64,000 nucleotides of DNA from assembly GCF_024437735.1 (NCBI RefSeq), contig NZ_JANFQO010000014.1, positions 1-64,000 on the forward strand, written 5' to 3'. Positions 6,275 through 58,432 of the stretch are shown one piece after another (positions within the stretch are counted from its first letter, which is position 1; each line of letters starts with the position of its first letter). The notes beneath the pieces were generated by a model that did not search any database, had not been told where the DNA came from, and worked only from the letters and a program-made list of their open reading frames with translations. The translations under genes were made by a program, and so were the position numbers. Source of the stretch: Tahibacter harae. Its GTDB lineage: Bacteria; Pseudomonadota; Gammaproteobacteria; Xanthomonadales; Rhodanobacteraceae.

Positions 6275-6463
6275 GGCTATCCCTTGCTGGGCTGCGGCTT
6301 TCGCGGCGGTGGTTGCGCGGCGAAGGCCGGCGGGAAACAGCATCTGGCCGGAACCGCGCCGCCCGGGCGCCGGCACCTGCGGCGCGCGGCCGCGGGGCTT
6401 CCGGCATTCCCGTCACGGCCGCGCGCCGGCGCAGACCTCAGCGTTGCGCGGCAGCGGCGCCGT

Positions 6464-8518
6464 TCACGCGCCGTCGCCGCTCAGGCGCTTGAGCGTCTCC
6501 ACGTCGCCGTGGCGTCCGGAGGCGGTGAGCTTCTGCATCAGCCCGGCGATGGAAAGATCGCGCACCGCATCGGCGCCGCCCAGCGCGGCGATCAGCTCAC
6601 GCGCATCGGCGATCAGGTCGCGCTTGCCGGCCTTGTGCTCGGCCAGGGCGGTGCTGAGCAGGTCGCTCTTGTCGACGGTGCCGTCGATGGCCTTGCCCAG
6701 GCTCAGGCTGCGCATGAAGCGCTCGAAGTATTCGCCGTCGCCGCCGACAATCTCGATCTTGGCCGCACCCAGCGCCTTGGACAGCACTTCGGCCTGCTCG
6801 CGCGCGATGGCCTGGTTGGCCTCGATGCTCTTGAGGCGCTGCGCGTGCGCGTAGTCCAGCTGCATGCGCTGTTCCTCGTGGGCGCGCGTGTCGGCGCTCA
6901 TCGCCTGCATGGCTTCAAACTTGTCCTTGAGGCCGCCGGCTTCGGCCGCGAAGCGCGCGGCGATCGCCGCGGCTTCGGCTTCGCCGTACTTGAGCTTGCC
7001 GCTGGCTTCGGCTTCCAGCTTCAGGCGCAGCGCCTCGGCCGTGGCCGCGCCCTGCTTGGAGATGGCGTCGGCCTCGGCGATCTGCACCTTGGCCGAGACC
7101 ATGCCGGCCTTCTCGTCCGCATCGGCCTTGGCCAGGGCGACCTTGGCGGCGGCCAGTCCGCTCGCGGCGGCCAGCGCCTCCACGCCTTCGGCTTCGCGCT
7201 TCTTGCCTTCGGCGGTCTTGCTGGCGATGGCCAGGCGCGCCTCGGCCATGGTGAGTTCCTCGGACGCCTTGTGCTTGGCGCGCTGCTCGTCGGCCAGCGC
7301 GGTCTTCACTTCGGTGATGAACTTTTCTTCCGCCTGGCCTTCGGCCAGCACGATGGTGCTCTTCTTGGTGCGCTCGGCCTCGGACAGGGTGCGCAGGTTC
7401 TTGATCTCTTCTTCCTGCTCGGCCACGGTGCGCTCGACCACGATGCGCTCGCGGATCACGTCGGCGATGGCCTTCTTCTGCACTTCGACGGCTTTTTCCT
7501 TTTCTATGCGCTGCAGCGTGACTTCGCGCTCGCGGTCGACCACTTCCAGCTCGCGCGCGCGGGTGACTTTCTCTTCCTCGATGGCGACGGCGCGCTGGCG
7601 GTTCTTCTCCGCCACCTCGGCCTCGCGCTTCATGTTCTCGGTCTGCACCGCGATCTGCTGTTCGGCCAGCAGGCGCGCCGCCTCGGCCTTGGCGCGCTCT
7701 TCGGAGGCGACCTTGGCCGCCTCGGCTTCCTCACGCGCGCGGGTGATGGCGATTTCGCGCTGCTGGTTGGCTTCGGCATGGGCCTTCTGCCGTTCCAGCT
7801 CCAGCACGGCCTCGGCCGTCTCCACGTCCTTCTTCTTGATGCGCATTTCCTCGTTGCGGCGCAGCTCGTTGGTGAACACGTTCTGCTCGGCGGTGAGCTC
7901 GGTGATCTTCTTGATGCCCTGGGCGTCGAGGATGTTGTGCGGATCGAGCTTTTCCAGCGGAGTCTGCTCAAGGTAGTCGATGGCGGCATCCTCCAGCACA
8001 TAGCCCGAGAGTTCATCGCCGATCTGGCGCACGATCTGGTCGCGGAAGCGGTCGCGCGCCTCGTACAGGTCGACGAAGTCCATGGCCTTGCCCACGGTCT
8101 TGAGCGCTTCGGAGAACTTGGCGCTGAACAGGTCTTCCAGCGTGGCCTGGTTGCTGGCGCGCTCGCAGCCTATGCCCTGGGCCACGCGCAGCACGTCCTC
8201 GCGGGTCTTGTTGACGCGCACGAAGAATTTCACCTTGATGTCGGCGCGCATGTTGTCCTTGCAGATCAGGCCTTCCTTGCCCATGCGCTCGATCTCGATG
8301 GTCTTGAGCGAAATATCCATCACCTCGCGCCGGTGCAGCACCGGAATGACCAGGCGGCCGGTGAAGGTCACTTCCGGCTCGGCGCGCATGGTGTTGACGA
8401 TCATGGCGCGGCCCTGGTCGACCTTTTGATAGAACTTGGCCACGACGGCCATCAGGGCGAGCACGGCGAGGGCGACGAGCACGACGACGACGATCAGCGT
8501 GGTGACTGTGATATCCAT
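6464..8518 (-). CDS. Flotillin / SPFH (band 7) domain protein, YqiK-like
   Basis: ATG at 8516-8518. N-terminal TM helix (TLIVVVVLVALAVLALMAVV), an SPFH domain, then a very long E/A/K/R-rich coiled coil and a flotillin-type C-terminus. Sits directly downstream of an NfeD-like gene, as yqiJ-yqiK does in E. coli. Confidence 0.9.
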   Translation of the reverse strand: MDITVTTLIVVVVLVALAVLALMAVVAKFYQKVDQGRAMIVNTMRAEPEVTFTGRLVIPVLHRREVMDISLKTIEIERMGKEGLICKDNMRADIKVKFFVRVNKTREDVLRVAQGIGCERASNQATLEDLFSAKFSEALKTVGKAMDFVDLYEARDRFRDQIVRQIGDELSGYVLEDAAIDYLEQTPLEKLDPHNILDAQGIKKITELTAEQNVFTNELRRNEEMRIKKKDVETAEAVLELERQKAHAEANQQREIAITRAREEAEAAKVASEERAKAEAARLLAEQQIAVQTENMKREAEVAEKNRQRAVAIEEEKVTRARELEVVDREREVTLQRIEKEKAVEVQKKAIADVIRERIVVERTVAEQEEEIKNLRTLSEAERTKKSTIVLAEGQAEEKFITEVKTALADEQRAKHKASEELTMAEARLAIASKTAEGKKREAEGVEALAAASGLAAAKVALAKADADEKAGMVSAKVQIAEADAISKQGAATAEALRLKLEAEASGKLKYGEAEAAAIAARFAAEAGGLKDKFEAMQAMSADTRAHEEQRMQLDYAHAQRLKSIEANQAIAREQAEVLSKALGAAKIEIVGGDGEYFERFMRSLSLGKAIDGTVDKSDLLSTALAEHKAGKRDLIADARELIAALGGADAVRDLSIAGLMQKLTASGRHGDVETLKRLSGDGA

Positions 8519-8656
8519 GGCGCTGGCTCCGGCAACAAGTGGTATGCGTTTACGTCAGGTTTTTTCTGCGCGCCGTGCAGGGCGTGCAAGGGATGAGGCG
8601 GCACCGCGGCCCGCCGGCGTTCCTGCATGAACGCCGCAGCGGGTGGTTTGCGAACG

Positions 8657-9280
8657 TCAGGGCGGATCGAATTCGGCCACCAGGTAACGCTTGCGTCCGG
8701 CATCGAAGTCGATGATCAGTGCCTGCGCATCGCGCGCCAATCGGTTGGGGACGCTGGCGTAGACCTGCAGGGTCAGGCGGGTGCCGTCGCCCATGTCCAC
8801 CTCGGCCTGGCCGAAATTCTCCTCCACGCTCAGGGTCAGGATGCGGCAGCGCTTGCCCAGGGCCGATTCCCGCGTCGCCGGAGCATTCACGGCAAACAGC
8901 GGCTTGAGGGGCCGCAGCGAGAACGCGGCGAGGAATACCGCGGCGACCAGCGCCGCCGCCAGCAGCACGGTGCCGCCCAGCCATACCGGCAGCGGCACCA
9001 GCGGCAGCAGCAGGTTCGCCGCGAGCATGGTCAGCAGCCACCAGTACAGGCCGATGGCACTGATCACGATGGAGAACGGCAGGCGGTCGAAACCCAGGGC
9101 GAGCACGGTCTCGGGCAGGCCGTCGACATCGCCGGCGTCATGGCCGCCTATCCAGTCCGGGCCCACGCTGTCGAAATCCAGCAGGCCGACGATGGCGGCC
9201 AGCCAGAACACCAGCAGCACGCCGATCAGGATGCTGGGCACGAAGGCCGGATACTGGGTCAGCAATTGGATAAAGCTCAT
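8657..9280 (-). CDS. NfeD/YqiJ-like membrane protein (TM helices plus a C-terminal OB-fold-like beta domain)
   Basis: ATG at 9278-9280. About three N-terminal TM segments and a C-terminal beta-rich segment (GKRCRILTLSVEENFGQAEVDMGDGTRLTLQVY...). Placement immediately upstream of the flotillin gene matches the NfeD-flotillin pairing. Confidence 0.7.
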   Translation of the reverse strand: MSFIQLLTQYPAFVPSILIGVLLVFWLAAIVGLLDFDSVGPDWIGGHDAGDVDGLPETVLALGFDRLPFSIVISAIGLYWWLLTMLAANLLLPLVPLPVWLGGTVLLAAALVAAVFLAAFSLRPLKPLFAVNAPATRESALGKRCRILTLSVEENFGQAEVDMGDGTRLTLQVYASVPNRLARDAQALIIDFDAGRKRYLVAEFDPP

Positions 9281-9633
9281 GACTTCACGGTCCTCTTGCC
9301 GGAACGGGTCTTGCGGTGTTTTTCTGCGAACGCGACCAGCGCGGCGCCGACGCGCTCCTTGATGGCCAGGTGATCCCCCGGGTCCAGACCATAGCGCGCG
9401 GCGAGCAGTTTGTAGTCATCCTCGCTCAGGCTCACGGTCAGGCGCGGCCGCTTGGCCTGGCGCAGCAGCGGCAGGCCAAGCACCACGCGCACCTGGTCGG
9501 AATTGGACAGGTTGGCCTCGTAGGCGGCCGCGCGCACCGCCTGCAGCACGGCCTCGGTCACGTCGAAGGCCACCTGGACGGCGCGCAAGGCGGGCTGCGA
9601 GGAACGCCAGCGGCTGGGCAGCTCAGTCTTCAT
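9277..9633 (-). CDS. Hypothetical 118-aa protein (possible RHH-like DNA-binding or adaptor protein)
   Basis: Internal ATG at 9631-9633 (MKTELPSRWRSS...). The upstream part of ORF 9277..9867 is Pro/Arg-rich junk. Overlaps the upstream gene by 11 nt and the NfeD gene by 4 nt, implying translational coupling. Protein composition looks globular. Confidence 0.5.
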   Translation of the reverse strand: MKTELPSRWRSSQPALRAVQVAFDVTEAVLQAVRAAAYEANLSNSDQVRVVLGLPLLRQAKRPRLTVSLSEDDYKLLAARYGLDPGDHLAIKERVGAALVAFAEKHRKTRSGKRTVKS

Positions 9634-46676: not shown

Positions 46677-46970
46677 ATGCTGGATCAGCTCAAGCTTGAG
46701 GATTTCCAACCGCTGGTCGGCCATAGCCTGAACCTGGGCGACGGCACCAGCGCCGTCGCGCTGGAGCTGACCGAAGCGCGCGCATTGAAAAGCCCCAGTC
46801 CGCGCAGCGCGCCCTCGTTCGCGCTGATCCTGCGCCAGAACGGCGCGCAGCAGTCCTTCGGTCAGGGCCTGTACCGGCTGGAGCACCCCAGCCTGGGCCC
46901 TCTGGATCTGTTCGTGGTGCCGATAGGCCCGGACGGCGCCGGCATGTGCTACGAGATCACGTTCAACTGA
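46677..46970 (+). CDS. Small hypothetical protein (97 aa)
   Basis: GGGGAGA RBS then ATG at 46677 (MLDQLKLEDFQPLVGHSLNLGDGTSAVALELTEA...). Vaguely resembles a small DUF family but is not placed with confidence. Confidence 0.4.
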   Translation: MLDQLKLEDFQPLVGHSLNLGDGTSAVALELTEARALKSPSPRSAPSFALILRQNGAQQSFGQGLYRLEHPSLGPLDLFVVPIGPDGAGMCYEITFN

Positions 46971-47013: not shown

Positions 47014-47526
47014 TCAGGCCGGCGGCGTCCAGCCCAGGAACAGGTAGACGCCGCGCTCCTCGATCAGGCGGAAACCCAGGCGGTCGTACAGGCGCAGCGC
47101 CGGGTTGTTGGTTTCCACATGCAGGGTGATCTCGCGCCCGTCCTCGCGCGCAATCTGCATCAGGCCCTGCACCAGCGCCGCGCCCAGGCCCTGGCCGCGG
47201 CGCGCATCGACCAGCGCAATATCCATCAGGCGGATTTCGCGCTCGCTCGGGTACAGGTAGATGCGGCCTATGCGCTCGCCATCCGCCTCGACCACGAGGA
47301 ATTCCGCACCCTGGTAGTTTTTGCGGTAGTGATCGCGCTGCAGCTGGAACTGCTCGGCGAGAAAGGCCAGCTTGGCCTCGTCCGGCCAGGGCACGTGGGC
47401 CAGTTCCTCGCGCCGCGTGGCGGCGTAGAGCGCGCACAGGAAGGCCGTATCGGCGTCGGCCTCCCCGCGCAGCCCGAACTGCGGACACTGTTGCAGCAGG
47501 CGCTGCGCAAGGCTGGCGCCGCTCAA
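47014..47526 (-). CDS. GNAT family N-acetyltransferase
   Basis: Acetyl-CoA-binding motif RRGQGLGAALV and YDRLGF. Probable TTG start at 47524-47526 overlapping the upstream stop (TTGA). Confidence 0.75.
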   Translation of the reverse strand: MSGASLAQRLLQQCPQFGLRGEADADTAFLCALYAATRREELAHVPWPDEAKLAFLAEQFQLQRDHYRKNYQGAEFLVVEADGERIGRIYLYPSEREIRLMDIALVDARRGQGLGAALVQGLMQIAREDGREITLHVETNNPALRLYDRLGFRLIEERGVYLFLGWTPPA

Positions 47527-48161
47527 GCGGGATCCACGGCGAAGACGATGTAATCGGCCGTCACGGGCTTGCGGTCGCGCCGCGCCAGCGGCTTGAGCCA
47601 GCTGCCGGAGAAGCGGTACTCGGCCAGGTTGAAGCGGCCCATGCTCAGCGGCCGGTGCAGCAGGATGTAGTGGCCCGGCACCAGGCGGCCGTCACGCGCG
47701 TCGCCGATCAGGTTGACGCTGGGCGCGGTCTTGCTGCGCAGCTTGCCGCCCTGCGGCGAAACCACGAAGCCGGCGAACGAGGATGCCTGGGCAAGGAAGG
47801 AAATCGGCCGGCTGCCGCTGTCGCGGCCGGCGGCGGCGGCGCTGTAGACCAGGGCCAGGTTCACCTCGCGCCCTTCGCCGAAAAAGGCCGATTCGATGTC
47901 GATGGCGCCCAGGGTGTTGCCGGTCGAGCGCACTACGCCAAGCAGGTTGATGCGGGCTTCGCCCAGGCTGGCTTCGAGCTGGGGCCAGGCCTGCTGCAGG
48001 TCGCCGGTAAGATCGGTTTCCCCGCCGCTGCCGGCCACGCGCAGCAGGATGAAGCTGGCAGCGGCGGCATCGGTGGCCGCTGCGGCAAGCGGGCTGTAGC
48101 CCGCGGCCAGCCCAAGACCCAGCAGCGCCACCGGCGCGCCGAGAAATTCACGACGTTTCAT
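47523..48161 (-). CDS. Tat-secreted hypothetical protein
   Basis: N-terminal twin-arginine signal MKRREFLGAPVALLGLGLAAG. Coordinates taken from the ORF track. My reading of the printed sequence near 48160-48171 is off by one nucleotide in a C-run, so ±1 nt uncertainty applies locally. Confidence 0.6.
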   Translation of the reverse strand: MKRREFLGAPVALLGLGLAAGYSPLAAAATDAAAASFILLRVAGSGGETDLTGDLQQAWPQLEASLGEARINLLGVVRSTGNTLGAIDIESAFFGEGREVNLALVYSAAAAGRDSGSRPISFLAQASSFAGFVVSPQGGKLRSKTAPSVNLIGDARDGRLVPGHYILLHRPLSMGRFNLAEYRFSGSWLKPLARRDRKPVTADYIVFAVDPA

Positions 48162-48384
48162 GCGTATCCCCTGTAACGGCCGTCACCCCGGCCGTGTGAC
48201 GGACTGTAACGCCGCCCGCGCCCAGACCCGCAGCGGAAGCTCAGCCCCGCCGACGATTTTACGTGGTTTTACAAATGCGACGGCCCGCGATCTGTGCGGG
48301 CCGTCGGAAAAGTGCTACCGCTGCTCACTGTCCGGGCGGAAATCGGCCAGGAGCCGGTTCCGCCCGGGTATCAGCACCCGGGCA

Positions 48385-48909
48385 TCAAGGCCGCGCCGGG
48401 AACACGCCCTGCAGGGCGATGCAGAACATCAAGGTGAGGTACGGCTGCAGGTTGTTGTGCGGCTGGCTGCCGCCGTAGGGCGCCAGCGACTGGAACGCCA
48501 TGTTCGACGGTGCCGAGCTGTCCGGCGCGTAGATCGGACCGTTGTTCGACGTGGTGAGCGAACGCGTGTTCAGCGGCGCGTTCTGATCGCCGATGTCGGC
48601 GGCCACCTGCAGCAGATGGGTGTGCGACGGGATCTCGCTCTCAAGCAAGGTCACGTACGCCGAACCGCCGACCTGGCCGAGATCGTAGATCGTGCCGGTG
48701 GTCGACTGGCCCCAATGCATCGGCGTGTTGCCGGCCATGTTGGGCAGCGCGAAGTTGCTCTTGCCGTTGCCGCCGTAGGTGGTGCCGAGCAGCGAGAACA
48801 GCGCAGTGTTCTGCGACAGCGGCAACAGCTGCCCGTCGCACGTCGCCCAGCCGCGCGGCGCGAAGTTGAACCCGAAGATGCGAATTTCCGCAACGAATGG
48901 ATCTGCCAT
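48385..48909 (-). CDS. Phage-tail-collar domain protein (Mdp/microcystin-dependent-protein-like), paralog 3
   Basis: GAGGGGGG RBS then ATG at 48907-48909. Motifs FxxxFAPxGWxxCDGQLLPxxQNxALFSLLGTTYGG, NFALPNM and IPSHTH. Confidence 0.85.
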   Translation of the reverse strand: MADPFVAEIRIFGFNFAPRGWATCDGQLLPLSQNTALFSLLGTTYGGNGKSNFALPNMAGNTPMHWGQSTTGTIYDLGQVGGSAYVTLLESEIPSHTHLLQVAADIGDQNAPLNTRSLTTSNNGPIYAPDSSAPSNMAFQSLAPYGGSQPHNNLQPYLTLMFCIALQGVFPARP

Positions 48910-48921
48910 GACTCGCCCCCC

Positions 48922-49425
48922 TCAGGTCGGACTCGGAAAAATGCCAAACAGCGAAATGATGAAGCTCACGCACAGGTACGGCTGCATGTTCTCGTGCGGC
49001 TGGCTGCCGCCGACAGGTTGGATCGACTTGGACGAGATCGGGCCGGCCGGCGCTTCGGTCAGATAGGGCTGTACGGTCGGCGCCTGGGCCAGCAGGCCAT
49101 CCTTACCCTGCGGATTCTGCGCCTGCACCGTGGAGCAGACGACAGCGTGGTTGTGGACCGGTATCTGCTGCGTCGTCAGCGTGACGCTCTCGACGCCGCC
49201 GGACTCGGCGAGGATGAAGCTGTTGCCCTGGTGCAAGGGCACGCGACCTTGCAGGTTGGGCAGGGCGAAGGTCGATTCGCCGTCGCCGCCGTAGGTTGTT
49301 CCGATCAGCTGGAACAGGGTTTCGTTCTCGGAAATGGGCAGGATCTGGCCGTTGCAGAACATCCAGCCCGCGGGCGGGAAATTGCCGCCGAACATGCGGA
49401 TCTCGCCGACATAGGGTTGTGCCAT
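48922..49425 (-). CDS. Phage-tail-collar domain protein (Mdp-like), paralog 2
   Basis: GGAG then ATG at 49423-49425. MAQPYVGEIRMFGGNFPPAGWMFCNGQILPISENETLFQLIGTTYGGDGESTFALPNLQGRVP...IPVHNH. Confidence 0.85.
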   Translation of the reverse strand: MAQPYVGEIRMFGGNFPPAGWMFCNGQILPISENETLFQLIGTTYGGDGESTFALPNLQGRVPLHQGNSFILAESGGVESVTLTTQQIPVHNHAVVCSTVQAQNPQGKDGLLAQAPTVQPYLTEAPAGPISSKSIQPVGGSQPHENMQPYLCVSFIISLFGIFPSPT

Positions 49426-49435
49426 GGTCGTCTCC

Positions 49436-49948
49436 TCAGGTCTGGCTCGGGAAGATGCCCTGCAGGGCGATGCAGAAACTCAGTGTCAGGAACGGCATCA
49501 TGTTCAGATGTGCCTGACTTCCGCCGATGTTGGTGACCGACTGGGGGTGCAGCGTCGTCAGTGCTCCGCCCGGCGCGTTGTAGAGGCTGGACGATACGGT
49601 GGCGAGGATGGTCGAACCCGTCGGCACATTCGTCGTCGCACCAACCGATGTGGACACCATGACATGCGTGTGCTGCGGGGTTTCCGACGCGGTGAGCGTA
49701 TGCGCCTGCTCGCCGCCGCGCTCGCCGAGCGTGAAACCCGTGCCGCCGCCCACGTAGACCGGCACCCGGCCGCGCAGATCGGGTAGCGCGAAATTCACGC
49801 GGCCGTCGCCGCCGTAGGTTGTCCCGAGCAGCGAGAACAGAGCCTGGTTCTGGTTGATGGGCAGCAGTTGCCCGTTGCACAGCGCCCAACCCTTGGGCGC
49901 GAAAACAAAACTGAAAATACGGACTTCGGCTAAGAATGGCTCTGCCAT
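49436..49948 (-). CDS. Phage-tail-collar domain protein (Mdp-like), paralog 1
   Basis: GGGGAGG then ATG at 49946-49948. MAEPFLAEVRIFSFVFAPKGWALCNGQLLPINQNQALFSLLGTTYGGDGRVNFALPDLRGRVP...TPQHTH. Confidence 0.85.
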   Translation of the reverse strand: MAEPFLAEVRIFSFVFAPKGWALCNGQLLPINQNQALFSLLGTTYGGDGRVNFALPDLRGRVPVYVGGGTGFTLGERGGEQAHTLTASETPQHTHVMVSTSVGATTNVPTGSTILATVSSSLYNAPGGALTTLHPQSVTNIGGSQAHLNMMPFLTLSFCIALQGIFPSQT

Positions 49949-50089
49949 GACGCCTCCCCTGGTGATGCGTTGCGTGGTCGGATTGGAACGACTGCGTACA
50001 GGCTGCGCGCCGCGTCCCTGCGGCGCGTTACGTCGGCGCCGGCCTCGCGCGTGCGGAGCCGGCGCCAGATTCTCATTGCGCGCGCTGTA

Positions 50090-53000
50090 TCAGAAGCAAG
50101 GCGCGGTACCGGTGGTATACGAGGTAAACGAGTTCGTCGTCGCCGTCGGCTGGGCGTTGGTGTTCGCACCGTTGAGGTAGTTCACTACGTCCGTGATGGT
50201 GCCCGTGCCGCCAAGATTGCGCAGGCGGAAGTTGGCGAGCGGCGCCGTGCCCGTCTCGGCCGGGTTGATGCGCATGCGCATGTTGCCGGCCGCGACACTG
50301 CCGTCCCAGGTGCCGGCGATGTTGTTGCCCTGGATATCGGCGCACAACTGGCTGGAATCGCCGTCGTCGTTGCCCGACTGCACGAACACGGCGTGGCCGA
50401 CGCGCGTGCCGGCCGGAACCGGCGGATCGGGCGAAAGGAACTGGTTGTTCGTGATCACGACCCCGATGGTGTCGTTCAGCTGGCTGATCACCTCCACGGC
50501 GCGCTGGCGGATGTGCTGGACCGTGTTGTTGGAGATGGTCATGCGCATGTCGCCGCCGGTACCTTCGTTGGTGACCGAGACGCCGTTGCAGCCTGCGCAG
50601 TTGTTGCCGCTGTCGACGGCGGCTCCGCCGATCGTGTTGTTGCTGAACGTGCCCACGAACAGCCCCGTCGCGCCCGTGCCCTTGCGGAAGGTCACCGGTG
50701 TATTGCCCGAGGTTACCGTGCCGCTCACCGTGATGGTGTTGTTCTGCGCGGTGGCGTTCATCGTTGCCGCGTTGTCAGTCAGGAACTGGAGGGCCAGCGA
50801 GTTATCGGTGAACGTGTTCGCCACCGTCGTACCGACGTTGAACGTCATGTTCGCATTGCCGATGCCCTGGGCCGTCAGCGCCGTACCGAAGTTGCGGCGG
50901 AAGGTCGAACCGTTGATCGCGGTCGTCATCTGCGAAGTGCCATGGCCGGCGATCAGCACGCCCTGTGCCGCCGTGGAAGTGTAGATGCCGCGGTCGAAGG
51001 TGGAGTTGGTGATCGCCATGGTCAGCGCGCTGGTCGCATTCGGGTTCTGCACCTCGAACTGGCGGTGGTAGTTGCCCGTGAACGACGAGTTGCTGATGTT
51101 GACCGTGCCGCGCAGGTTGACGAACTGCACGCCATCTTCGAGGTTTTCGTCGCCGACATTCGCCACCGTCACGTCGTCCATGGTCAGGCCGTTGACGTCG
51201 TTGCCGTTGATGCCCATCTGCGTGCCGCCGGAGACATCGACGTTGCTCAGGGCGACGGCGCTGGTGGCCACCATGTGGATGGCGGCGCCGCAATTGGTGT
51301 TGGTGCCGCCGAATGCGTTGCCGCAGGTCGCCGCGCCGTCCTGGTTGGTGCCGTTGCCGGTGAAGCCCATGTTCGACAGGGTCAGGCTCTTCAGGCCGTT
51401 GGTCGACACACCGCGCGCAGTCTTGTTGTTGATCGTGCCGCCGGAGTTGGTGGTCGTGCCCACGCCGGTGATGGTCAGGCCGCCGTTGCCCGCGCCGGTG
51501 CCGGTATTGACCAGCGAAATGCCGTTCGCACCGGTGCCGTTGTTGGTGATGCTGCGGAAGGTCAGGCCGCCGGAACCGATCTGCGTGGTGTTGACGTTGA
51601 GCGAGGTGCCGGTACCGGTGGTGCTGATGGTGTTGACGATCGCGCCCCCCGCCGTGACGGTCAGGGTGCCGCCGCCGGTCGCGTCGATGCCATCGCCGCT
51701 GGCCGAGGTGATGGTCAGGCCGCCGGAGAAGTTCACCGTGCCGCTGGTCTGGTGGCGCACGCCGTCGCCAAGCGTGGTGGTGAGGCCGACGGCACCGCTG
51801 AAGTTCATCGTGCTCGCGCCGTTCGTGCTGAGATCGATCGCGTTGGCCGCGGCCGAACTCAGCGTGATCGCACCCGTGTAGCTCTGCGTGCCGCCGGTGT
51901 TGTTGCTCAGGCGGATGCCGGTGCCGGTGTTGTTCTTGCTGATGGTGCCGGCGTAGGTGAAGGTCGGCGAGGACGAGTCGATGCGGATGGCTTCGTTGGT
52001 CGGGTTGGTGATGGCCGAGCCGGTATTGGAGAAGTTGATCGTGCCGGCCGAATTGGTGGTGATGTCGATGCCGGCGTCGCCGCCGTTCAGGGTCACCACG
52101 CCGCTCGCCGTGAAGTTGCTGTCCACGTTGCTGAGGTTGATGCCGGTGCCGTTGGTGGCGCTCAGCGCTCCGCTCAGCGTGATGTTGCCGCTGGCCTTGT
52201 TCTGCACGTCGATCAGCAGGCCCGCGCTGGTCTTGCTCATGCTGCCGGCATAGGTGACCGCAACCGTGCCGCCGCTGACGTTGAAGCTGGTGCCGGTGGC
52301 GCCGGACAGCGCGCCCGTGCCCAGGTCGACCGTGCCGTTGACCGTGGTCAGCGAGACATTGTTGGCGCCGCCGCTTGAACTCAGCGCAGCCACGATGGAA
52401 CCGGCGGCGAAGGTGCCGTTGGTGAGGTTCAGCGCCTGGCCGTTGGTGTTGATGCGCACGTCGTCGTACACGGTCAGCGTGCCGAAGCCGGTGCCGGCGA
52501 TGGCTCCGCCGGTGACGTTGCCGATCTGCACGCCGCGCACCGTGTTGTTGCTGCCCAGGGTGATGCCGTTGCCGGCGGCATTGGTAATGACGGGCGGCGT
52601 CTGGTCGACCAGCGGACGCGCAATCGAATAGCTCGGCGGCGTGATGCCCAGTTCGGCGTCGAAGTCGTTCACCGTGGCCGCATCCAGGCCGTGGCCGGCC
52701 AGCTCCACGCCGTTGGCCAGCGTGATGCCGGTGGTGTAGTTGCCCGAGAACACGAAGATCTTGTCGCCGCTGCTGGTCGCCACGGTCGCCGCCGCGCTCA
52801 GCGTCTGCAGCGGCTGCAGCAGCGTGCCGTCGCGCGTGCCGATCACGACCGCATCGTCATCGACGAAGAAGATGCGCGGGCCGCTCACGGTCAGGCTGAC
52901 GGTGATGTTCGCGCTGCAGGCCACCGGCGAGCCGTCGTCGCAGATGGTGTACTGGAAGGTGTCGGTGCCGGTGAAGCCGGACGGCGGGTTGTAGGTGTAC

Positions 53001-56000
53001 GCGCCGTTGGCGCTGATCGCCACGTCGCCGCCGTTGACCGACACCGTCGGCGAGGTGCCGATGGTGAAGTTGCTGCTGTCCGGATCGGTGATGTTGGCCA
53101 GTACCAGCAGATCGCCGGCGGCGCCGTCGTTGATGCCGACGGCGATGTTGGTGTGCACCGGCAGCGCGGCCGGAGCGACCACGACCGGCGGATCGTTGAC
53201 GCAGGTAACCGTCACCGACACGGTTGCCGTCGGCGTCGCGCCTGCCGGGTTCAGCGTGTAGGTGAACGTGTCCGGCGTGCCGCCGATCTGCGTGTTGCAG
53301 TAGTTCGGATTGGGCTGGTAGGTCAGGCCCGTGCCGCCGCCGGTGATGACGACGGTGCCGTTCGCCGGCTGCGTGACCGAGGCAACCGCCTTCGGTCCGC
53401 CGTCGACGTCGGTGTCGTTCGCCAGCACGGGAATGGCCGTCGCCGCCGCGTCTTCGAGCATCGTCGCCGTGTCATTCACCGCGACCGGCGCATCGTCGAC
53501 GCAGGTCACCGACACGGTGACCGTCGCGGTCGGCGTGGGGCCGGCCGGGTTCAAGGTGTAGGTGAACGTGTCCAGCGTCGTGCCCGGCGGCGTGTTGCAG
53601 TAGTTCGGGTTGGGCTGGTAGCTCAGGCCCGTGCCGCCGCCGGTGATGACGACAGTGCCGTTGGCCGGCTGGGTCACGGACGCGACCGCGAGCGGCGAGC
53701 CGTCCGGGTTGGAGTCGTTGGCCAGCACGTCGATCGGCGTCGCGGCGGCATCTTCGGCAACTGTCGCGGCATCGGCCACCGCGACCGGCGGATCGACGAC
53801 GCAGGTGACCGCGACGGACACCGTTGCGCTGCTGCCGCCCGGCGTCAGCGTATAGGTGAACGTGTCGGGCGTGCCCGGTGTCGGCGCGTTGCAATAGTTC
53901 GCGTTCGGCTGATAGGTCAGGCCGCTGCCGCCGCCGGTGATGGCGACGACACCGTTGGCCGGCTGGGTGATGGCCGTGATGGTGATGGGACCGCCATCCG
54001 GATCGGTGTCGTTGACCAGCACCGGGATCGCCGTGGCCGGATCGTCCTCGGTGATGGTCGCCGAATCGTTGACCGCGGTCGGCGCGTCGTCCACGCAGGT
54101 CACGGTCATGAGCACCGTCGCGGTCGAGCCGCCCGGGGCCAGGGTGTAGGTGAACGTGTCCGGCGTCGTGCCCGGAGGCGCGTTGCAGTAGTTCGGGTTG
54201 GGCTGGTAGGTCAGGCCCGTGCCGCCGCCGGTGATGACGACGCTGCCGTTGAGCGGCTGGGTGACCGAGGCGACCGAGATCGGGCCGGCATCGATATCGG
54301 TGTCGTTGGCCAGCACGTTGACCGCGGTCGCGGCCGCGTCTTCGGTCACGGTGGCGGCGTCGTTGACGGCGGCCGGCGGATCGTCGTCCGCGTTGATGGT
54401 GATGGTCAGGGTGGCCGGCGCGCTGGTGTCGGCGCCGCTGTTGGCGGTGCCGCCGTTGTCCTGCAGCGTGACCGTGAAGACCGCGGTACCGCTCGCGTTC
54501 GCGGCCGGAGTGAAATTCAGCTGGCCCGCGACCGAGACCGTCGGCAGCGACGAGAACAGCGGGCCGCCGCTCACGACGGCGACGTTGAAGCCGAAGGACT
54601 GGCCGGATTCATCGGCCGGGCCGGAGGAAATCGCCGTGGCCCAGGCGATGCTGGCCGGGCCGGAGTCTTCGTTGACCACCGGGTCGGCGCCCGCGGTGAA
54701 GCTGGGCGCGTCATTGACCGCAGTGACGTTGATGGTGAAGTTCTGCGGCGCCGAGGTGTCGTTGCCGCCGCTGCCCGTGCCGCCATTGTCCTGCGCGATC
54801 ACGGTGATCGTGGCCGAGCCGTTGGCGTTGGCCGCCGGCGTATAGGTCAGCGTGCCGTCGCCGGCAATGGCCGGGCCGGCGCTGAACAGGGCGGGATTGC
54901 TGTTGCCGGTAACGGTGAAGCTGACCGTCTGGCTGCCGTCGTCGCCGTCGGCGATGCCAGTGACGAAGCCGGCCGCGGTCTGCGCGCCGGCGTCTTCCAG
55001 CACGGTCTGCGCGCCGCCGACGGTGAACACCGGCGGATCGTTGACGTTGTTGACGGTGATGGTGAAGGTCTGCGCCGCGGAGGTGTCCTGGCCGCTGTTG
55101 GCGGTGCCGCCGTTGTCCTGCAGGGTGGAGCTGACCGTGGCCGTGCCGAAGGTGCCGTTCTGCGCGGTGAAGGTCAGCGTGCCGTTCGGCGCCACGGCCG
55201 GGGCCGCGCTGAAGGCCAGGCTGCCGGTGGTCGCGGTCACCGCGGTGGTGAAGCTCAGGGTCTGGCCGGCTTCGTCGGCCGGACCGGCCGAGATCGCCGT
55301 GTGGAAATTGGCAAAGGTCTGCGGGCCGGCGCTTTCCAGCGCACTGGCGGCAGTGCCGCCGGTGAAGCTGGGCGCATCGTTGACCGCAGTGACATTGATG
55401 GTGAAGTTCTGCGGCGCCGAGGTGTCGTTGCCGCCGTTGCCGGTGCCGCCGTTGTCCTGCGCGATCACGGTGATCGTGGCCGAGCCGTTGGCGTTGGCCG
55501 CCGGCGTATAGGTCAGCGTGCCGTCGCCGGCGATGGCCGGGCCGGCGCTGAACAGGGCGGGATTGCTGTTGCCGGTAACGGTGAAGCTAACCGTCTGGCT
55601 GCCGTCGTCGCCGTCGGCGATGCCGGTGACGAAGCCGGCCGCGGTCTGCGCGCCGGCGTCTTCCAGCACGGTCTGCGCGCCGCCGACGGTGAACACCGGC
55701 GGATCGTTGACGTTGTTGACGGTGATGGTGAAGGTCTGCGCCGCGGAGGTGTCCTGGCCGCTGTTGGCGGTGCCGCCGTTGTCCTGCAGGGTGGAGCTGA
55801 CCGTGGCCGTGCCGAAGGTGCCGTTCTGCGCGGTGAAGGTCAGCGTGCCGTTCGGCGCCACGGCCGGGGCCGCGCTGAAGGCCAGGCTGCCGGTGGTCGC
55901 GGTCACCGTGGTGGTGAAGCTCAGGGTCTGGCCGGCTTCGTCGGCCGGACCGGCCGAGATCGCCGTGTGGAAATTGGCAAAGGTCTGCGGGCCGGCGCTT

Positions 56001-58432
56001 TCCAGCACCGAGGCCGAGGTGCCGCCGCTGAAGCTCGGCGCATCGTTGACCGCGGTGACGGTGATGGTGAAGGTCTGCGTGGCCGAGGCGTCGATGCCGC
56101 CGTTGCCGGTGCCGCCGTTGTCATGCAGCAGCAGCGTGATGGTCGCCGTGCCGTTGGCGTTGGGCGCCGCGGTATAGCTCAGCGCGCCGGTCGGCGAGAC
56201 CGCGGGTGCGGTGGCGAACAGGGCCGGGTTGCTGTTGGCGGTGACCTGGAAATCCAGGGCCTGGGTGTTGCCGTCGCCGTCGCTGATCGCGGTGGCCCAG
56301 GGATTGACCGTCTGCGGGCCGGCATCTTCGAGCGAGGTCTGGTTGGGACCGACGGTGAAGCTGGGCGCGTGATTGATGCCCTGCACCGTGATGGTGAAGG
56401 TCTGCGTGGCCGAGGTGTCGGCGCCGCCGTTGGCGACACCGCCGTTGTCGGCCAGCTGCAAGGTGATCGTGGCCGTGCCGCTGACGCCGGCGGCCGGGGT
56501 ATAGGTCAGTGCACCAGTCGGCGAGATCGCCGGCGCGGCGCTGAACAGCGCGGGATTGGTGTTATTGGTGACGGCGAAGGCGAGCGTCTGCGCGGCTTCG
56601 TCGGCCGGGCCGGGCGAGATCGCCGTGGCCCAGGGGTTCACGCTCTGCGCGCTGGCATTCTCGAACACGGTCTGGTTGGGACCGACGGTGAAGGACGGCG
56701 CATCGTTGACCGCCGTCACCGTGATGGTGAAGGTCTGCGGCGCCGAGGTATCGGAGCCGCCGAAGGCGGTGCCGCCGTTGTCGTGCAGCACTACGCTGAT
56801 GCTGGCCGTGCCGTTGGCGTTCGGCGCAGCGGTATAGGTCAGCACGCCGGTGGGCGAGACTGCCGGCGCGGTCGCGAACAGGGCCGGGTTGGTGTTGCCG
56901 GTGATCTGGAAATCGACGACCTGGGTGTTGCCGTCGCCGTCGCTGATCGCGCTGGCCCAGGCGTTGACCGTCTGCGCGCCGGCGTCCTCGAGCGAGGTCT
57001 GGTTCGCGCCGGCGGTGAAGCTGGGCGCGTGGTTGATCGCGTTGACGTTGATGACGAAGGTCTGCGCGGCCGAAGTGTCGATGCCGCCATTGGCGGTGCC
57101 GCCGTTGTCCTGGGCGACCACGCTGACGGTGGCGATGCCCGAGGTGCCGTTGGTCGCGGTGAAGGTCAGCGTGCCGTTGGCGGCGACCGCGGGCGCGGCG
57201 GCGAAGGTCAGGTTGCCGGTGGTGCTGACGACGCTGGCGGTGAAGGCCACGGTCTGCGCGGCCTCGTCGGCCGGACCGGCGCTGATCGCGGTGGCCCAGG
57301 CGTTGACGGTCTGCGCGCCGGCGTTCTCCGGCACGGCCTGGTCGGCGCCGGCGGTGAAAGACGGCGGATCGTTGACCGGCGTGACCGTGATCGCGGCGGT
57401 GGCCGGCGCCGAGGCGCCCTGGCCGTCGCTGCCGGTGAAGGTGAAGGAATCCGCACCGTTGAGGTTGGCGGTCGGCGTATAGACCACGGTCGCCGTGGTC
57501 GCATTGACCGGCGTGATCGCGCCCAGGGTGCCGCGGGCCGGCGGAGTGGCGATGGCGAAGGTGATCGGATCGCCTTCGACGTCGGTGCCGGTGAGGGTCA
57601 GGGTAACCGGGGTTTCTTCCAGCGTGGTCACCGCCGGCGTGCTCACGACGGGCGGGTTGTTCTGCAGGTCGCGCACGTCGATGCGCAGGAAGACGCGGCC
57701 GTTCTCGATCGCGCCGAACAGGTTGACCATGTCGATCGCGCTTTCGCCGCTGGTGGCGTCGCCGGCCGGGTCGCCGGCCAGCGGCGGCGTGCCGCTCCAG
57801 TCGCCGACCTGGCCGTCGGCGGCGAAATTCGCCGCGATGGCGATGCCGCAGGCAACGAAGAACAGCGACAGCGCGCGCCAGGCCGCGGTGCGGCGGGCGC
57901 GCCGCGCGCCGTAGAAGGCGATCAGCCCCAGCAGCACGAACAGCAGCGGCCAGGACAGGAAAGGCACCGGCATGGCCGGCAGGCCGAGGATGATCGGGCC
58001 GCCGCCGGCGGCGGCGTTGAGTTCGTCGGTGCCGCTGGCGCTCTGGGCGACCACCGCCAGGCGCAGACCGCGGCTGTTGCCCAGCTGCAGCGAGGCCATG
58101 GCGTCGGCCAGTTCGACCACGTCCGCGCCGCTGGTGCCGTTGTTCAGGCCTACCGGATAGCCGCCGCCGACGGCGGTGCCCGGACCGAACGTGCTGCCGG
58201 ACTGGCAGGGCGCCCGGCGCACCGCGACCACCTGGGGAGCGGTGCCGCCGGTGACATCGACTTCCAGGCGGGAATCCGCACCGGCGATGGCCGGCACGGT
58301 GCAGCCGGTGCCCGGGTTGAGATCCCCGTCTACATAGATGTGGTAGGAGTAGGTCTGTGCGCTGGCCGCGTTTACCGCGCACAACGCCAGAAGGAATACG
58401 ACGACCGCCCAGGCCGCTTTCCGGATACGCAT
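50090..58432 (-). CDS. Giant secreted repeat-rich adhesin-like protein (~2780 aa): N-terminal region, >10 tandem ~105-aa Ig/cadherin-like (VCBS-type) domains, ~5 Ig-like group domains, C-terminal right-handed parallel beta-helix
   Basis: ATG at 58430-58432 (MRIRKAAWAVVVFLLALCAVNAASAQ signal peptide); the 43-aa upstream extension in the ORF track is rejected. Repeats of the form VNDAPSFT...TFTITV and VNDSATITEDDPATAIPVLVNDTDPDGGP. Pectate-lyase-like beta-helix repeats (ISNNTVQHIRQRAVEV..., GNVTGGAIAGTG...). Ends ...GTAPCF. Confidence 0.9.
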   Translation of the reverse strand: MRIRKAAWAVVVFLLALCAVNAASAQTYSYHIYVDGDLNPGTGCTVPAIAGADSRLEVDVTGGTAPQVVAVRRAPCQSGSTFGPGTAVGGGYPVGLNNGTSGADVVELADAMASLQLGNSRGLRLAVVAQSASGTDELNAAAGGGPIILGLPAMPVPFLSWPLLFVLLGLIAFYGARRARRTAAWRALSLFFVACGIAIAANFAADGQVGDWSGTPPLAGDPAGDATSGESAIDMVNLFGAIENGRVFLRIDVRDLQNNPPVVSTPAVTTLEETPVTLTLTGTDVEGDPITFAIATPPARGTLGAITPVNATTATVVYTPTANLNGADSFTFTGSDGQGASAPATAAITVTPVNDPPSFTAGADQAVPENAGAQTVNAWATAISAGPADEAAQTVAFTASVVSTTGNLTFAAAPAVAANGTLTFTATNGTSGIATVSVVAQDNGGTANGGIDTSAAQTFVINVNAINHAPSFTAGANQTSLEDAGAQTVNAWASAISDGDGNTQVVDFQITGNTNPALFATAPAVSPTGVLTYTAAPNANGTASISVVLHDNGGTAFGGSDTSAPQTFTITVTAVNDAPSFTVGPNQTVFENASAQSVNPWATAISPGPADEAAQTLAFAVTNNTNPALFSAAPAISPTGALTYTPAAGVSGTATITLQLADNGGVANGGADTSATQTFTITVQGINHAPSFTVGPNQTSLEDAGPQTVNPWATAISDGDGNTQALDFQVTANSNPALFATAPAVSPTGALSYTAAPNANGTATITLLLHDNGGTGNGGIDASATQTFTITVTAVNDAPSFSGGTSASVLESAGPQTFANFHTAISAGPADEAGQTLSFTTTVTATTGSLAFSAAPAVAPNGTLTFTAQNGTFGTATVSSTLQDNGGTANSGQDTSAAQTFTITVNNVNDPPVFTVGGAQTVLEDAGAQTAAGFVTGIADGDDGSQTVSFTVTGNSNPALFSAGPAIAGDGTLTYTPAANANGSATITVIAQDNGGTGNGGNDTSAPQNFTINVTAVNDAPSFTGGTAASALESAGPQTFANFHTAISAGPADEAGQTLSFTTAVTATTGSLAFSAAPAVAPNGTLTFTAQNGTFGTATVSSTLQDNGGTANSGQDTSAAQTFTITVNNVNDPPVFTVGGAQTVLEDAGAQTAAGFVTGIADGDDGSQTVSFTVTGNSNPALFSAGPAIAGDGTLTYTPAANANGSATITVIAQDNGGTGSGGNDTSAPQNFTINVTAVNDAPSFTAGADPVVNEDSGPASIAWATAISSGPADESGQSFGFNVAVVSGGPLFSSLPTVSVAGQLNFTPAANASGTAVFTVTLQDNGGTANSGADTSAPATLTITINADDDPPAAVNDAATVTEDAAATAVNVLANDTDIDAGPISVASVTQPLNGSVVITGGGTGLTYQPNPNYCNAPPGTTPDTFTYTLAPGGSTATVLMTVTCVDDAPTAVNDSATITEDDPATAIPVLVNDTDPDGGPITITAITQPANGVVAITGGGSGLTYQPNANYCNAPTPGTPDTFTYTLTPGGSSATVSVAVTCVVDPPVAVADAATVAEDAAATPIDVLANDSNPDGSPLAVASVTQPANGTVVITGGGTGLSYQPNPNYCNTPPGTTLDTFTYTLNPAGPTPTATVTVSVTCVDDAPVAVNDTATMLEDAAATAIPVLANDTDVDGGPKAVASVTQPANGTVVITGGGTGLTYQPNPNYCNTQIGGTPDTFTYTLNPAGATPTATVSVTVTCVNDPPVVVAPAALPVHTNIAVGINDGAAGDLLVLANITDPDSSNFTIGTSPTVSVNGGDVAISANGAYTYNPPSGFTGTDTFQYTICDDGSPVACSANITVSLTVSGPRIFFVDDDAVVIGTRDGTLLQPLQTLSAAATVATSSGDKIFVFSGNYTTGITLANGVELAGHGLDAATVNDFDAELGITPPSYSIARPLVDQTPPVITNAAGNGITLGSNNTVRGVQIGNVTGGAIAGTGFGTLTVYDDVRINTNGQALNLTNGTFAAGSIVAALSSSGGANNVSLTTVNGTVDLGTGALSGATGTSFNVSGGTVAVTYAGSMSKTSAGLLIDVQNKASGNITLSGALSATNGTGINLSNVDSNFTASGVVTLNGGDAGIDITTNSAGTINFSNTGSAITNPTNEAIRIDSSSPTFTYAGTISKNNTGTGIRLSNNTGGTQSYTGAITLSSAAANAIDLSTNGASTMNFSGAVGLTTTLGDGVRHQTSGTVNFSGGLTITSASGDGIDATGGGTLTVTAGGAIVNTISTTGTGTSLNVNTTQIGSGGLTFRSITNNGTGANGISLVNTGTGAGNGGLTITGVGTTTNSGGTINNKTARGVSTNGLKSLTLSNMGFTGNGTNQDGAATCGNAFGGTNTNCGAAIHMVATSAVALSNVDVSGGTQMGINGNDVNGLTMDDVTVANVGDENLEDGVQFVNLRGTVNISNSSFTGNYHRQFEVQNPNATSALTMAITNSTFDRGIYTSTAAQGVLIAGHGTSQMTTAINGSTFRRNFGTALTAQGIGNANMTFNVGTTVANTFTDNSLALQFLTDNAATMNATAQNNTITVSGTVTSGNTPVTFRKGTGATGLFVGTFSNNTIGGAAVDSGNNCAGCNGVSVTNEGTGGDMRMTISNNTVQHIRQRAVEVISQLNDTIGVVITNNQFLSPDPPVPAGTRVGHAVFVQSGNDDGDSSQLCADIQGNNIAGTWDGSVAAGNMRMRINPAETGTAPLANFRLRNLGGTGTITDVVNYLNGANTNAQPTATTNSFTSYTTGTAPCF
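54690..56030. repeat. Two near-identical 666-bp tandem direct repeats inside the adhesin gene (each encoding two ~111-aa domains)
   Basis: Plus-strand frame ORFs 54852..55511 and 55518..56177 translate identically for ~165 of 219 residues, offset by exactly 666 bp. The 54219..54845 ORF shares the same tail. The repeat boundaries given are approximate. Confidence 0.8.

Follow-up and report, generated by a model that had tools for sequence, protein, structure and literature searches.

A giant immunoglobulin-repeat protein and three tail-collar paralogs of Tahibacter harae as members of a widespread cellular gene cassette

A 64-kb stretch of DNA from Tahibacter harae, a Xanthomonadales gammaproteobacterium (positions 1 to 64,000 of contig NZ_JANFQO010000014.1, GC content ~69%; hereafter the window), was analyzed around a gene for a giant secreted protein with immunoglobulin-like (Ig) repeats and three adjoining genes for small paralogous phage tail-collar proteins, named A, B, and C. 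Together with the genes for a GNAT acetyltransferase and a DUF6916 protein, these are one copy of a widespread cellular six-gene cassette that recurs with its gene order in at least nine phyla. This descriptive core of the finding is held with high confidence. As to function, the mechanism as a whole, in which A, B, and C would assemble 1:1:1 into a heterotrimeric knob whose tip varies and which acts together with the giant protein on the cell surface, is on balance probable. No paper describing the cassette was found in the literature searched.

Composition and recurrence of the cassette

The initial annotation of the region, made from the letters of the sequence, had described a ~2780-aa adhesin-like open reading frame (ORF) beside three tail-collar paralogs. 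These were found as described on the minus strand, and the coordinates of the cassette and of the features lying within it are as follows:

46677..46970, plus strand: DUF6916 protein, 97 aa (Pfam PF21880, E 3.8e-26)
47014..47526, minus strand: cassette-specific GNAT, 170 aa (Pfam Acetyltransf_1, E 4.7e-15)
47523..48161, minus strand: protein with a twin-arginine-type signal (MKRREFLG..., including RREFL), 212 aa, no family match
48362..48383, minus strand: GC-rich hairpin GCCCGGG-8 nt-CCCGGGC directly 3' of the stop codon of C, no T-run
48385..48909, minus strand: collar paralog C, 174 aa (Pfam Collar, E 4.3e-26; orthogroup C)
48922..49425, minus strand: collar paralog B, 167 aa (Pfam Collar, E 6.8e-29; orthogroup B)
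49436..49948, minus strand: collar paralog A, 170 aa (Pfam Collar, E 3.4e-28; orthogroup A)
50090..58432, minus strand: giant secreted Ig-repeat protein, 2780 aa (Pfam, NCBIfam, translation)

Only the DUF6916 gene lies on the plus strand, convergent with the GNAT gene at a distance of 44 nt. Gaps of 10–12 nt with ribosome-binding sites had been reported for the three paralogs downstream of the adhesin gene. They are present between the paralogs, with 10 nt separating A from B and 12 nt separating B from C and a purine-rich site in each spacer (GGAG and GGGGG, with GGAG before B), but the gap between the stop codon of the giant gene and the start codon of A is 141 nt. The downstream GNAT and twin-arginine-signal protein mentioned in the initial annotation were also both found; that the former belongs by orthology to the core of the cassette and the latter is a lineage-specific insert had not been seen, and the DUF6916 gene, likewise a core member, had been overlooked just outside the block then described. 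The TTG start codon of the GNAT overlaps the stop codon of the twin-arginine-signal protein (TTGA, 47523–47526), and the lineage-specific insert would therefore be translationally coupled to the conserved GNAT. Beyond the hairpin, a non-coding stretch of ~220 nt follows 3' of C. A promoter and terminator scan of the 46.4–50.3 kb region found nothing above chance, and the hairpin was not called as an intrinsic terminator. Paralog A was 100% identical to a database protein of T. harae.

A scan of one genome per species with A identified at least 600 matching stretches, and the survey was made of the 80 loci closest to A. These best 80 loci span seven phyla, namely Pseudomonadota (alpha, beta, and gamma), Acidobacteriota, Chloroflexota, Bacteroidota, Verrucomicrobiota, Actinomycetota, and Eremiobacterota, and plasmid records add Deinococcota and Bacillota. 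The context is chromosomal or plasmid in cellular genomes, and RefSeq examples of the cassette are present on Aminobacter and Paenibacillus plasmids. Among the 50 loci with full flanks, i.e. at least 4 kb on both sides, the giant, taken as a co-oriented ORF of at least 800 aa within 3 kb, was found in 45, the GNAT in 46, and DUF6916 in 44, and all three were found in 39. Most of the full-flank loci lacking a co-oriented giant have one on the opposite strand. The co-conservation of the triplet with the adhesin, on which the initial annotation had made its proposal depend, is borne out by the co-oriented giant Ig-repeat genes of these 45 loci.

Also de novo clustering of the ORFs around the triplets produced three recurrent neighbour families, which were the giant ORFs, DUF6916, and the GNAT. 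The giants were located upstream of the triplet in 32 cases and downstream in 26, and they were co-oriented with it in 58 of 63. In the reciprocal test, all four DUF6916 proteins picked regardless of collar genes were found to sit in the cassette, and the arrangement at those four loci was the giant, A, B, C, and the GNAT, followed by a convergent DUF6916 gene. The PADLOC defence models gave no match for the six cassette proteins tested. At nine of the surveyed loci, which are referred to by L numbers (L022, L023, L038, L041, L048, L053, L058, L073, and L078; mostly Chloroflexota, some Bacteroidota and Actinomycetota), the cassette is joined by a periplasmic binding protein of the Peripla_BP_6 type of ~400 aa, often with a Tat-like (twin-arginine translocation) signal.

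The collar paralogs and their proposed assembly

All three paralogs matched the Pfam family Collar (PF07484) with 91–100 bits against a cut-off of 24 (E 3e-26 to 7e-29), and also PHROG families of phage tail proteins (E 1e-23 to 1e-28). The signature quoted in the initial annotation (GW..C.GQ.LP, LGTTYGG, FALP, and P.H.H) is present in each of them. The C-terminal half of C additionally gave a match to Gp10_C which remained below the cut-off (E 6e-4). The paralogs begin directly with the collar domain and have no fibre shaft; A starts with MAEPFL, has HTH as its HxH motif, and lacks a signal peptide. The two histidines of the HxH motif, H93 and H95, were invariant in 58 A-type sequences and also in B and C, as was GGSQ.H.N, and the HxH is predicted to be the metal-binding motif of the collar head.

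A, B, and C fall into three distinct orthogroups of ancient divergence, which always occur together. The A of the window was 73–74% identical to the A of Blastocatellia and of L004 but only 44–51% identical to its own B and C, and over 50 complete triplets the mean identity was 63–66% within the orthogroups and 46–51% between them. Since the paralogs of the same locus were no more alike than paralogs across loci in these 50 triplets, gene conversion is not indicated. Group-specific hidden Markov models separated A, B, and C unambiguously at almost every locus. The order A-B-C on one strand was retained at nearly all loci, being permuted at a few, and at some loci the whole triplet was duplicated in tandem; the median spacers of the 50 triplets were 11 and 10.5 nt.

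Conservation along the paralogs was uneven and similar in all three groups: it was 0.8–0.95 at residues 1–95 and 141–170 and 0.35–0.49 at residues ~96–140, the hypervariable stretch being situated just after the invariant HxH. The N-terminus was nearly fixed: Met is followed by Ala or Ser, the third residue is E (in A), Q (in B), or D (in C), and the fourth is Pro, as matched by 50 triplets with a start-finding pattern which itself required the form Met-Ala/Ser-x-Pro.

When 1.84 billion cluster representatives were scanned in full with HMMER, E ≤ 1e-3 was reached by 58,644 relatives and E ≤ 1e-30 by 6,670, and the top scorers were natural collar fusions. Single chains of ~507–560 aa hold three complete collar units; protein P0250 is clearly B-A-C, and BAC was the commonest triple pattern. 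The two-unit chains of ~340 aa mostly join different orthogroups (BC 17, BA 13, AC 12, and AB 5). Same-type fusions were found as well (CC 9, BB 4, and CCC 3), at low score margins, whereas the fusions with clear margins were all mixed (P0250 B-A-C, P0266 BA, P0295 BC, and P0303 AC). In four larger proteins that were scanned, the Collar domain was present in 3 or 6 copies per chain.

An experimental precedent is provided by the virophage DSLV2, in which three consecutive collar proteins co-purify 1:1:1 and run at ~55 kDa in native polyacrylamide gel electrophoresis (J Virol 2025, PMC12724248). The heterotrimer forms 16-nm fibres and binds Synechococcus cells in an enzyme-linked immunosorbent assay, and lipopolysaccharide (LPS) docks best as the receptor (PMC12724248). 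Because of four independent lines, namely the strict 1:1:1 pattern of distinct orthogroups with spacers of coupling length, the mixed fusions, the occurrence of the domain in multiples of three, and the virophage precedent, A, B, and C would appear to act as one complex, as the initial annotation had suggested when it raised a heterotrimer as a possibility.

The whole A-B-C triplet is tandemly duplicated in L016 (3410–12377), L055, L071, L083, L086, and L088. In L016 a giant gene lies ahead of each copy of the triplet, and both copies score identically. Some contigs of the viral catalogue have two or three triplets in series.

The giant protein, the partner genes, and the proposed surface role

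The giant gene starts with an ATG at 58432, followed by a signal peptide, and the ORF remains open to 58561. Pfam identified Big_9 nine times, Cadherin_4 seven times, and Cadherin_5 eight times in the protein (E 1e-54 to 1e-97; Big_9 320 bits), and NCBIfam the tandem-95 repeat NF012211 in 11 stretches (333 bits). The combination of these repeats with a Sec signal peptide read from the sequence is that of tandem-95/Big_9 surface proteins. The layout consists of the Sec signal, an N-terminal module, ~1600 aa of Big_9, Cadherin_4/5, and tandem-95 repeats, and a conserved C-terminal domain of ~930 aa, and two parts of it have been located as follows:

50093..52882, minus strand: C-terminal domain, aa 1851–2780, rich in Thr, Gly, and Asn and ending ...TGTAPCF
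57824..57976, minus strand: internal IPTL-CTERM-like motif with a transmembrane segment and an Arg cluster (aa 153–181), then a second signal-peptide-like transmembrane segment ending AIA|ANF (aa 185–203)

The part of the giant most widely common to other giants was aa ~1740–2700, i.e. the last cadherin-like repeat and the C-terminal domain. In phmmer comparisons, aa ~1740–2100 were covered in 43 of 52 loci and aa 2160–2700 in ~30. The C-terminal ~930 aa had been labelled a beta-helix in the initial annotation, and this label found no backing: the C-terminal 901 aa had no Pfam match up to E 10 and no sequence match in the PDB up to E 1. An assignment to the right-handed beta-helices of the pectate-lyase or tailspike type was accordingly not supported by sequence, as no family or solved structure was matched. 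The protein has a Cys two residues from its C-terminus. The giants that precede the triplet share the tail ...RLPGYgG...N....G-A-x-C-x-x-P, with a Cys 2–6 residues from the C-terminus (50093–50140 in the window; also L004, L006, L009, L017, L019, L024, L037, L046, L048, L049, L063, L074, L082, and L084), and a disulfide or a processing step might involve this Cys.

The N-terminal module consists of the signal peptide, a domain of ~125 aa, the IPTL-like motif with its transmembrane segment and Arg cluster, and the second signal-like transmembrane segment, and it was retained in 12 proteobacterial or Thermoanaerobaculia giants. The N-terminus gives the impression that a small IPTL-CTERM protein was joined to the front of the giant. 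IPTL-CTERM sorting itself (TIGR04174) was rejected, the look-alike motif being internal and not C-terminal and the NCBIfam model having no match. The giants inspected at other loci all had signal peptides and Big_9 or Cadherin_5 domains; they also carry Calx-beta, PKD, Big_5, and DUF11 repeats, and a Flavobacterium example has a sorting domain of the type IX secretion system.

The GNAT of the cassette is not a generic neighbour, because orthologues of the window GNAT adjoin the triplet at E 1e-35 to 1e-48, and they did so directly in 75 of 85 loci. Its identification as RimI, the bS18-alanine N-acetyltransferase, was rejected, the score being far under the equivalog cut-off.

The DUF6916 protein matched PF21880 with 91.4 bits against a cut-off of 27 and is predicted to be a small six-stranded beta-barrel. 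The RxxxR and D/NxSxxG motifs of the PilZ/YcgR-N barrels, which bind cyclic di-GMP, were looked for and were not present, and no paper mentioning DUF6916 was found in the literature searched. Of the 71 loci at which DUF6916 was matched, 27 have two such genes, and in 18 loci examined (18 proteins aligned) one DUF6916 copy had an SRRxFL twin-arginine signal. In a crude motif scan, Tat-like ORFs were found less than 3 kb from the triplet in 20 of 36 loci, compared with 8 of 36 in a control ring at 5–8 kb. The twin-arginine-signal protein of the window was matched by nothing in Pfam, NCBIfam, PHROG, or PADLOC, and its single homologue in a phmmer search, a weak one, was at the Chiayiivirga locus L009. 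DUF6916 had no PHROG match either.

Among relatives with fused collar units, some have Sec signals, some Tat signals (P0328 with three units and P0337 with two), and some PEP-CTERM anchors, and other relatives have the domain embedded in large proteins with FN3, Ig, or lectin domains. On account of the sorting signals, the collar assemblies of these relatives would therefore be extracytoplasmic. Judged from the Tat-signal fusions P0328 and P0337, Tat export of a folded collar assembly apparently does occur in relatives. A separate observation concerns P0263, P0274, P0284, and P0300, which are triple-collar proteins with short units and have a PEP-CTERM anchor as well as a signal peptide. They open with the motif GGxQxHxNxQPxLxLNYIIAL, with which a unit normally closes, and would seem to be single-chain collar trimers that have undergone circular permutation and are exposed at the cell surface.

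In the proposed mechanism, genes coupled in translation would yield equal amounts of A, B, and C, which would assemble 1:1:1 into a knob like the tip of T4 gp12 and gp37, held by all three HxH motifs. The conserved N-terminal face of the collar, with its Met-Ala/Ser-x-Pro start, would be the docking side and the hypervariable residues ~96–140 the ligand-binding tip. The knob would act outside the cytoplasm together with the giant as a device of surface recognition or adhesion, and its ligand would probably be a polysaccharide or the surface of another cell. More speculatively, the RimI-like GNAT may modify a cassette protein, perhaps by N-alpha-acetylating Ala2 or Ser2 of A, B, and C, which is the simplest hypothesis because of the weak RimI and N-terminal acetyltransferase matches and the near-invariant Met-Ala/Ser starts. 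DUF6916 may be a small assembly or export adaptor, and its copy with the Tat signal may let the folded, signal-less knob exit by Tat hitchhiking, which fits the Tat-DUF6916 data and is not universal. The acetylation and Tat-hitchhiking steps rank lower than the mechanism as a whole. Also tentative, and in our view doubtful, is the idea that the cassette would encode an unrecognized surface organelle present across bacteria, in which a domesticated phage tip, remodelled into an obligate A-B-C heterotrimer, would dock on or cooperate with the giant Ig-repeat fibre, be acetylated at its N-termini by the GNAT, cross the membrane in folded form by means of a DUF6916 adaptor (with Tat hitchhiking where there is a copy with a Tat signal), and determine by its hypervariable tip the polysaccharide or cell surface to be recognized.

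Several results weigh against this mechanism. Signal peptides, which the initial annotation had wished to see checked, were absent from A, B, and C in every phylum, monoderms included, and a cytoplasmic role would also be compatible with this. The giants are heterogeneous and situated upstream or downstream of the triplet, and a contact between the giant and the knob is suggested by the gene neighbourhood and by fusions in distant relatives. The AlphaFold2 monomer of A, based on the alignment of 58 sequences, reached a mean predicted local distance difference test score of 47.8, too low to be used; such low confidence is expected of an intertwined trimer, yet it proves nothing. With respect to the GNAT, the best NCBIfam match was RimI (TIGR01575) with 46.2 bits against a cut-off of 86.4, and the matches in the PDB were generic, several N-terminal acetyltransferases among them being a mere hint. 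A partner with a Tat signal was found at only about half of the loci, and the window Tat-signal protein was rejected as a divergent Tat-DUF6916, since in the profile comparison the two aligned over the 12 residues of the twin-arginine signal and nowhere else. The survey covered the loci nearest to A, and the association may weaken in remote members of COG4675, the group of small cellular collar proteins.

The competing explanations concern the origin of the block, the number of complexes, and the place of action. An origin as a degraded prophage, or as the remnant of an R- or F-type tailocin of which only the fibre-tip genes are recognizable, is consistent with the paralogs having the Collar domain and matching phage tail proteins best among the PHROGs, with the database labels 'phage tail protein' and 'tail fiber protein' of these genes, and with the listing of a Caulobacter K31 triplet as a phage region (PMC4221894). 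However, in agreement with the initial annotation of the neighbourhood, a Pfam scan of 25 ORFs in the 64 kb of the window showed no capsid, terminase, baseplate, or integrase domain. Sheath and tube genes were likewise absent from the scanned ORFs, and none of these genes was recurrent around the ~85 related loci; the recurrent neighbours, i.e. the GNAT, DUF6916, and the Ig-repeat giants, had no PHROG match. The best relatives of A in cultured phages, minor tail proteins of Microbacterium phages, were at most 38% identical to it, compared with 60–75% for the cellular orthologues in other phyla, and in IMG/VR small-collar triplets were present on a handful of contigs, most matches there being weak and to long tail-fibre proteins. 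With cellular recurrent neighbours, no phage genes, and distant phage relatives, the prophage or tailocin origin, against which the initial annotation had also argued, was rejected as extremely improbable. The phage collar proteins gp12, gp37, and gp10 of T4 are homotrimers. By analogy, A, B, and C might be three separate homotrimeric knobs forming a co-expressed panel of lectins or receptor-binding proteins beside the giant, which would agree with the complete HxH motif of each paralog and with the low-margin same-type fusions. Independent lectins should nevertheless vary in copy number, whereas A, B, and C co-occur 1:1:1 in essentially every complete locus; the clear-margin fusions join different orthogroups, the collar units per chain come in multiples of three, and the virophage triplet is heterotrimeric (PMC12724248). 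The homotrimeric panel is considered quite unlikely.

With regard to the place of action, the triplet, the GNAT, and DUF6916 might also form an intracellular or separately secreted module physically unrelated to the giant, for example with a function regulated by stress or density like that of RhiB and MrpB, their adjacency then reflecting only co-regulation or co-transfer. A, B, C, the GNAT, and the short DUF6916 all lack signal peptides, the giants vary in domain make-up as well as in position, and work on RhiB and MrpB has dealt with them as regulated proteins that have no known function (PMC13133039, PMC6969944). Relatives in COG4675 are evidently expressed, since they have been found in soil metaproteomes, in which they were abundant enough to be detected (PMC5579227). 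Such a module is nonetheless unlikely when set against the giant being adjacent in ~90% of loci over nine phyla, usually co-oriented, against the giant gene ahead of each duplicated triplet in L016, and against the relatives that embed collar triplets in extracellular Ig or FN3 proteins or attach surface-sorting signals to them. Some toxin systems use acetyltransferases as immunity proteins. The cassette could accordingly be read as an inter-bacterial or anti-predator weapon, in which the knob would target, the giant deliver or degrade, and the GNAT or DUF6916 protect the producer. The tip is hypervariable, and multiple copies per genome are possible, tandem duplicates exist, and some copies are plasmid-borne; also positive selection has been reported for the tail-collar paralogs of Solibacter (PMC3174227). 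Against this, Pfam and NCBIfam revealed no domain of a toxin, nuclease, peptidase, or pore-forming type among the window proteins, there was no PADLOC match, and the GNAT and DUF6916 are well conserved and do not co-diversify with the tip, so that a weapon is held to be very unlikely.

Comparison with known systems and other features of the window

For the heterotrimeric surface knob, the virophage heterotrimer is the closest functional analogue. The DSLV2 genes, like those of the cassette, encode three consecutive proteins of ~19 kDa with an N-terminal collar and a variable C-terminal head, and the short fibre binds a bacterial surface through LPS, which makes it a direct precedent for a heterotrimer of a collar triplet (PMC12724248). 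Unlike the cassette, the DSLV2 triplet is virus-encoded, is modelled on the capsid, and has no giant Ig-repeat partner, GNAT, or DUF6916. Moreover, the cellular A, B, and C have conserved orthogroups of their own, whereas viral contigs show only divergent triplets.

The T4 proteins gp12, gp37, and gp10 (PF07484, and Gp10_C PF21939) resemble the paralogs in having a collar domain followed by a head with an HxH metal-binding motif, and weak direct sequence matches of the paralogs were obtained to gp12 and to the solved long tail fibre 8kec (E 1.4e-3). They differ in being homotrimers that end long shafts within phage modules, whereas the paralogs are three distinct chains with no shaft and no phage context. 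A-B-C would be a cellular heterotrimeric derivative of a phage receptor-binding tip with dedicated partners.

Small cellular Collar proteins of unknown function are also found in COG4675, including MdpB, RhiB of the Rhizobium rhiABC genes, and MrpB of Microcystis, and the proteins of this group are annotated as 'microcystin-dependent protein'. RhiB is encoded by a single collar gene in the quorum-sensing-controlled rhiABC, of which RhiA and RhiC have no Pfam domain, and rhiABC as described has no triplet, giant, GNAT, or DUF6916 (PMC13133039). A rhiABC or MrpAB context was rejected for the window, in which the neighbours are the giant, the GNAT, DUF6916, an aminotransferase, and a two-component system, with no rhiI- or rhiR-like genes adjoining.

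Tail-collar proteins co-encoded with enzymes, acetyltransferases included, have been proposed by Iyer, Aravind et al. in 2010 to be surface or matrix substrates of these modifying enzymes (PMC2938197). Their neighbourhoods centre on 2-oxoglutarate-Fe dioxygenases and sulfotransferases (PMC2938197), whereas the cassette has a GNAT as its only such enzyme, beside DUF6916 and the giant. Collar triplets themselves have earlier been noticed only in passing, in the Caulobacter K31 'phage region' (PMC4221894) and as the Solibacter paralogs (PMC3174227).

The giant is comparable to adhesins of the BapA/LapA type in the broad sense, which likewise are multi-kilodalton secreted proteins of Ig-like repeats. 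Unlike these, it has no accompanying genes of a type I secretion system among the ORFs scanned and no RTX C-terminus; instead it has the Sec signal, the internal IPTL-like segment, the C-terminal domain with the terminal Cys, and the collar triplet as an obligatory neighbour.

Collar genes are commonly labelled as phage tail, tail fiber, or microcystin-dependent protein and are sometimes counted as prophage regions, and a cellular cassette with fixed partners should correct such prophage calls. The cassette also gives DUF6916 a testable context. If the proposed knob is real, a phage receptor-binding module would have been recruited by cells and converted from a homotrimer to a heterotrimer. 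The cassette furthermore gives a hint of the targets that many giant Ig-repeat proteins in bacteria of soil and water may recognize, and of a route by which a folded, signal-less complex might reach the surface.

The other ORFs scanned in the window encode ordinary cellular functions. They included the aminotransferase and the two-component system, a BlaR1/TonB protein, a reprolysin, a GGDEF protein, an S-adenosylhomocysteine hydrolase, TonB-dependent receptors, a patatin, a radical-SAM enzyme, and a DUF3686 ATPase. The last is a 1726-aa protein in the region 1196–9415 on the minus strand, with DUF3686 ('ATPase involved in DNA repair'), DUF7902, and AAA domains. Beside it are ORFs of 697 and 253 codons with a coding-like GC content at third codon positions and no Pfam match, and this neighbourhood (1196–9415) may be a defence or repair island.

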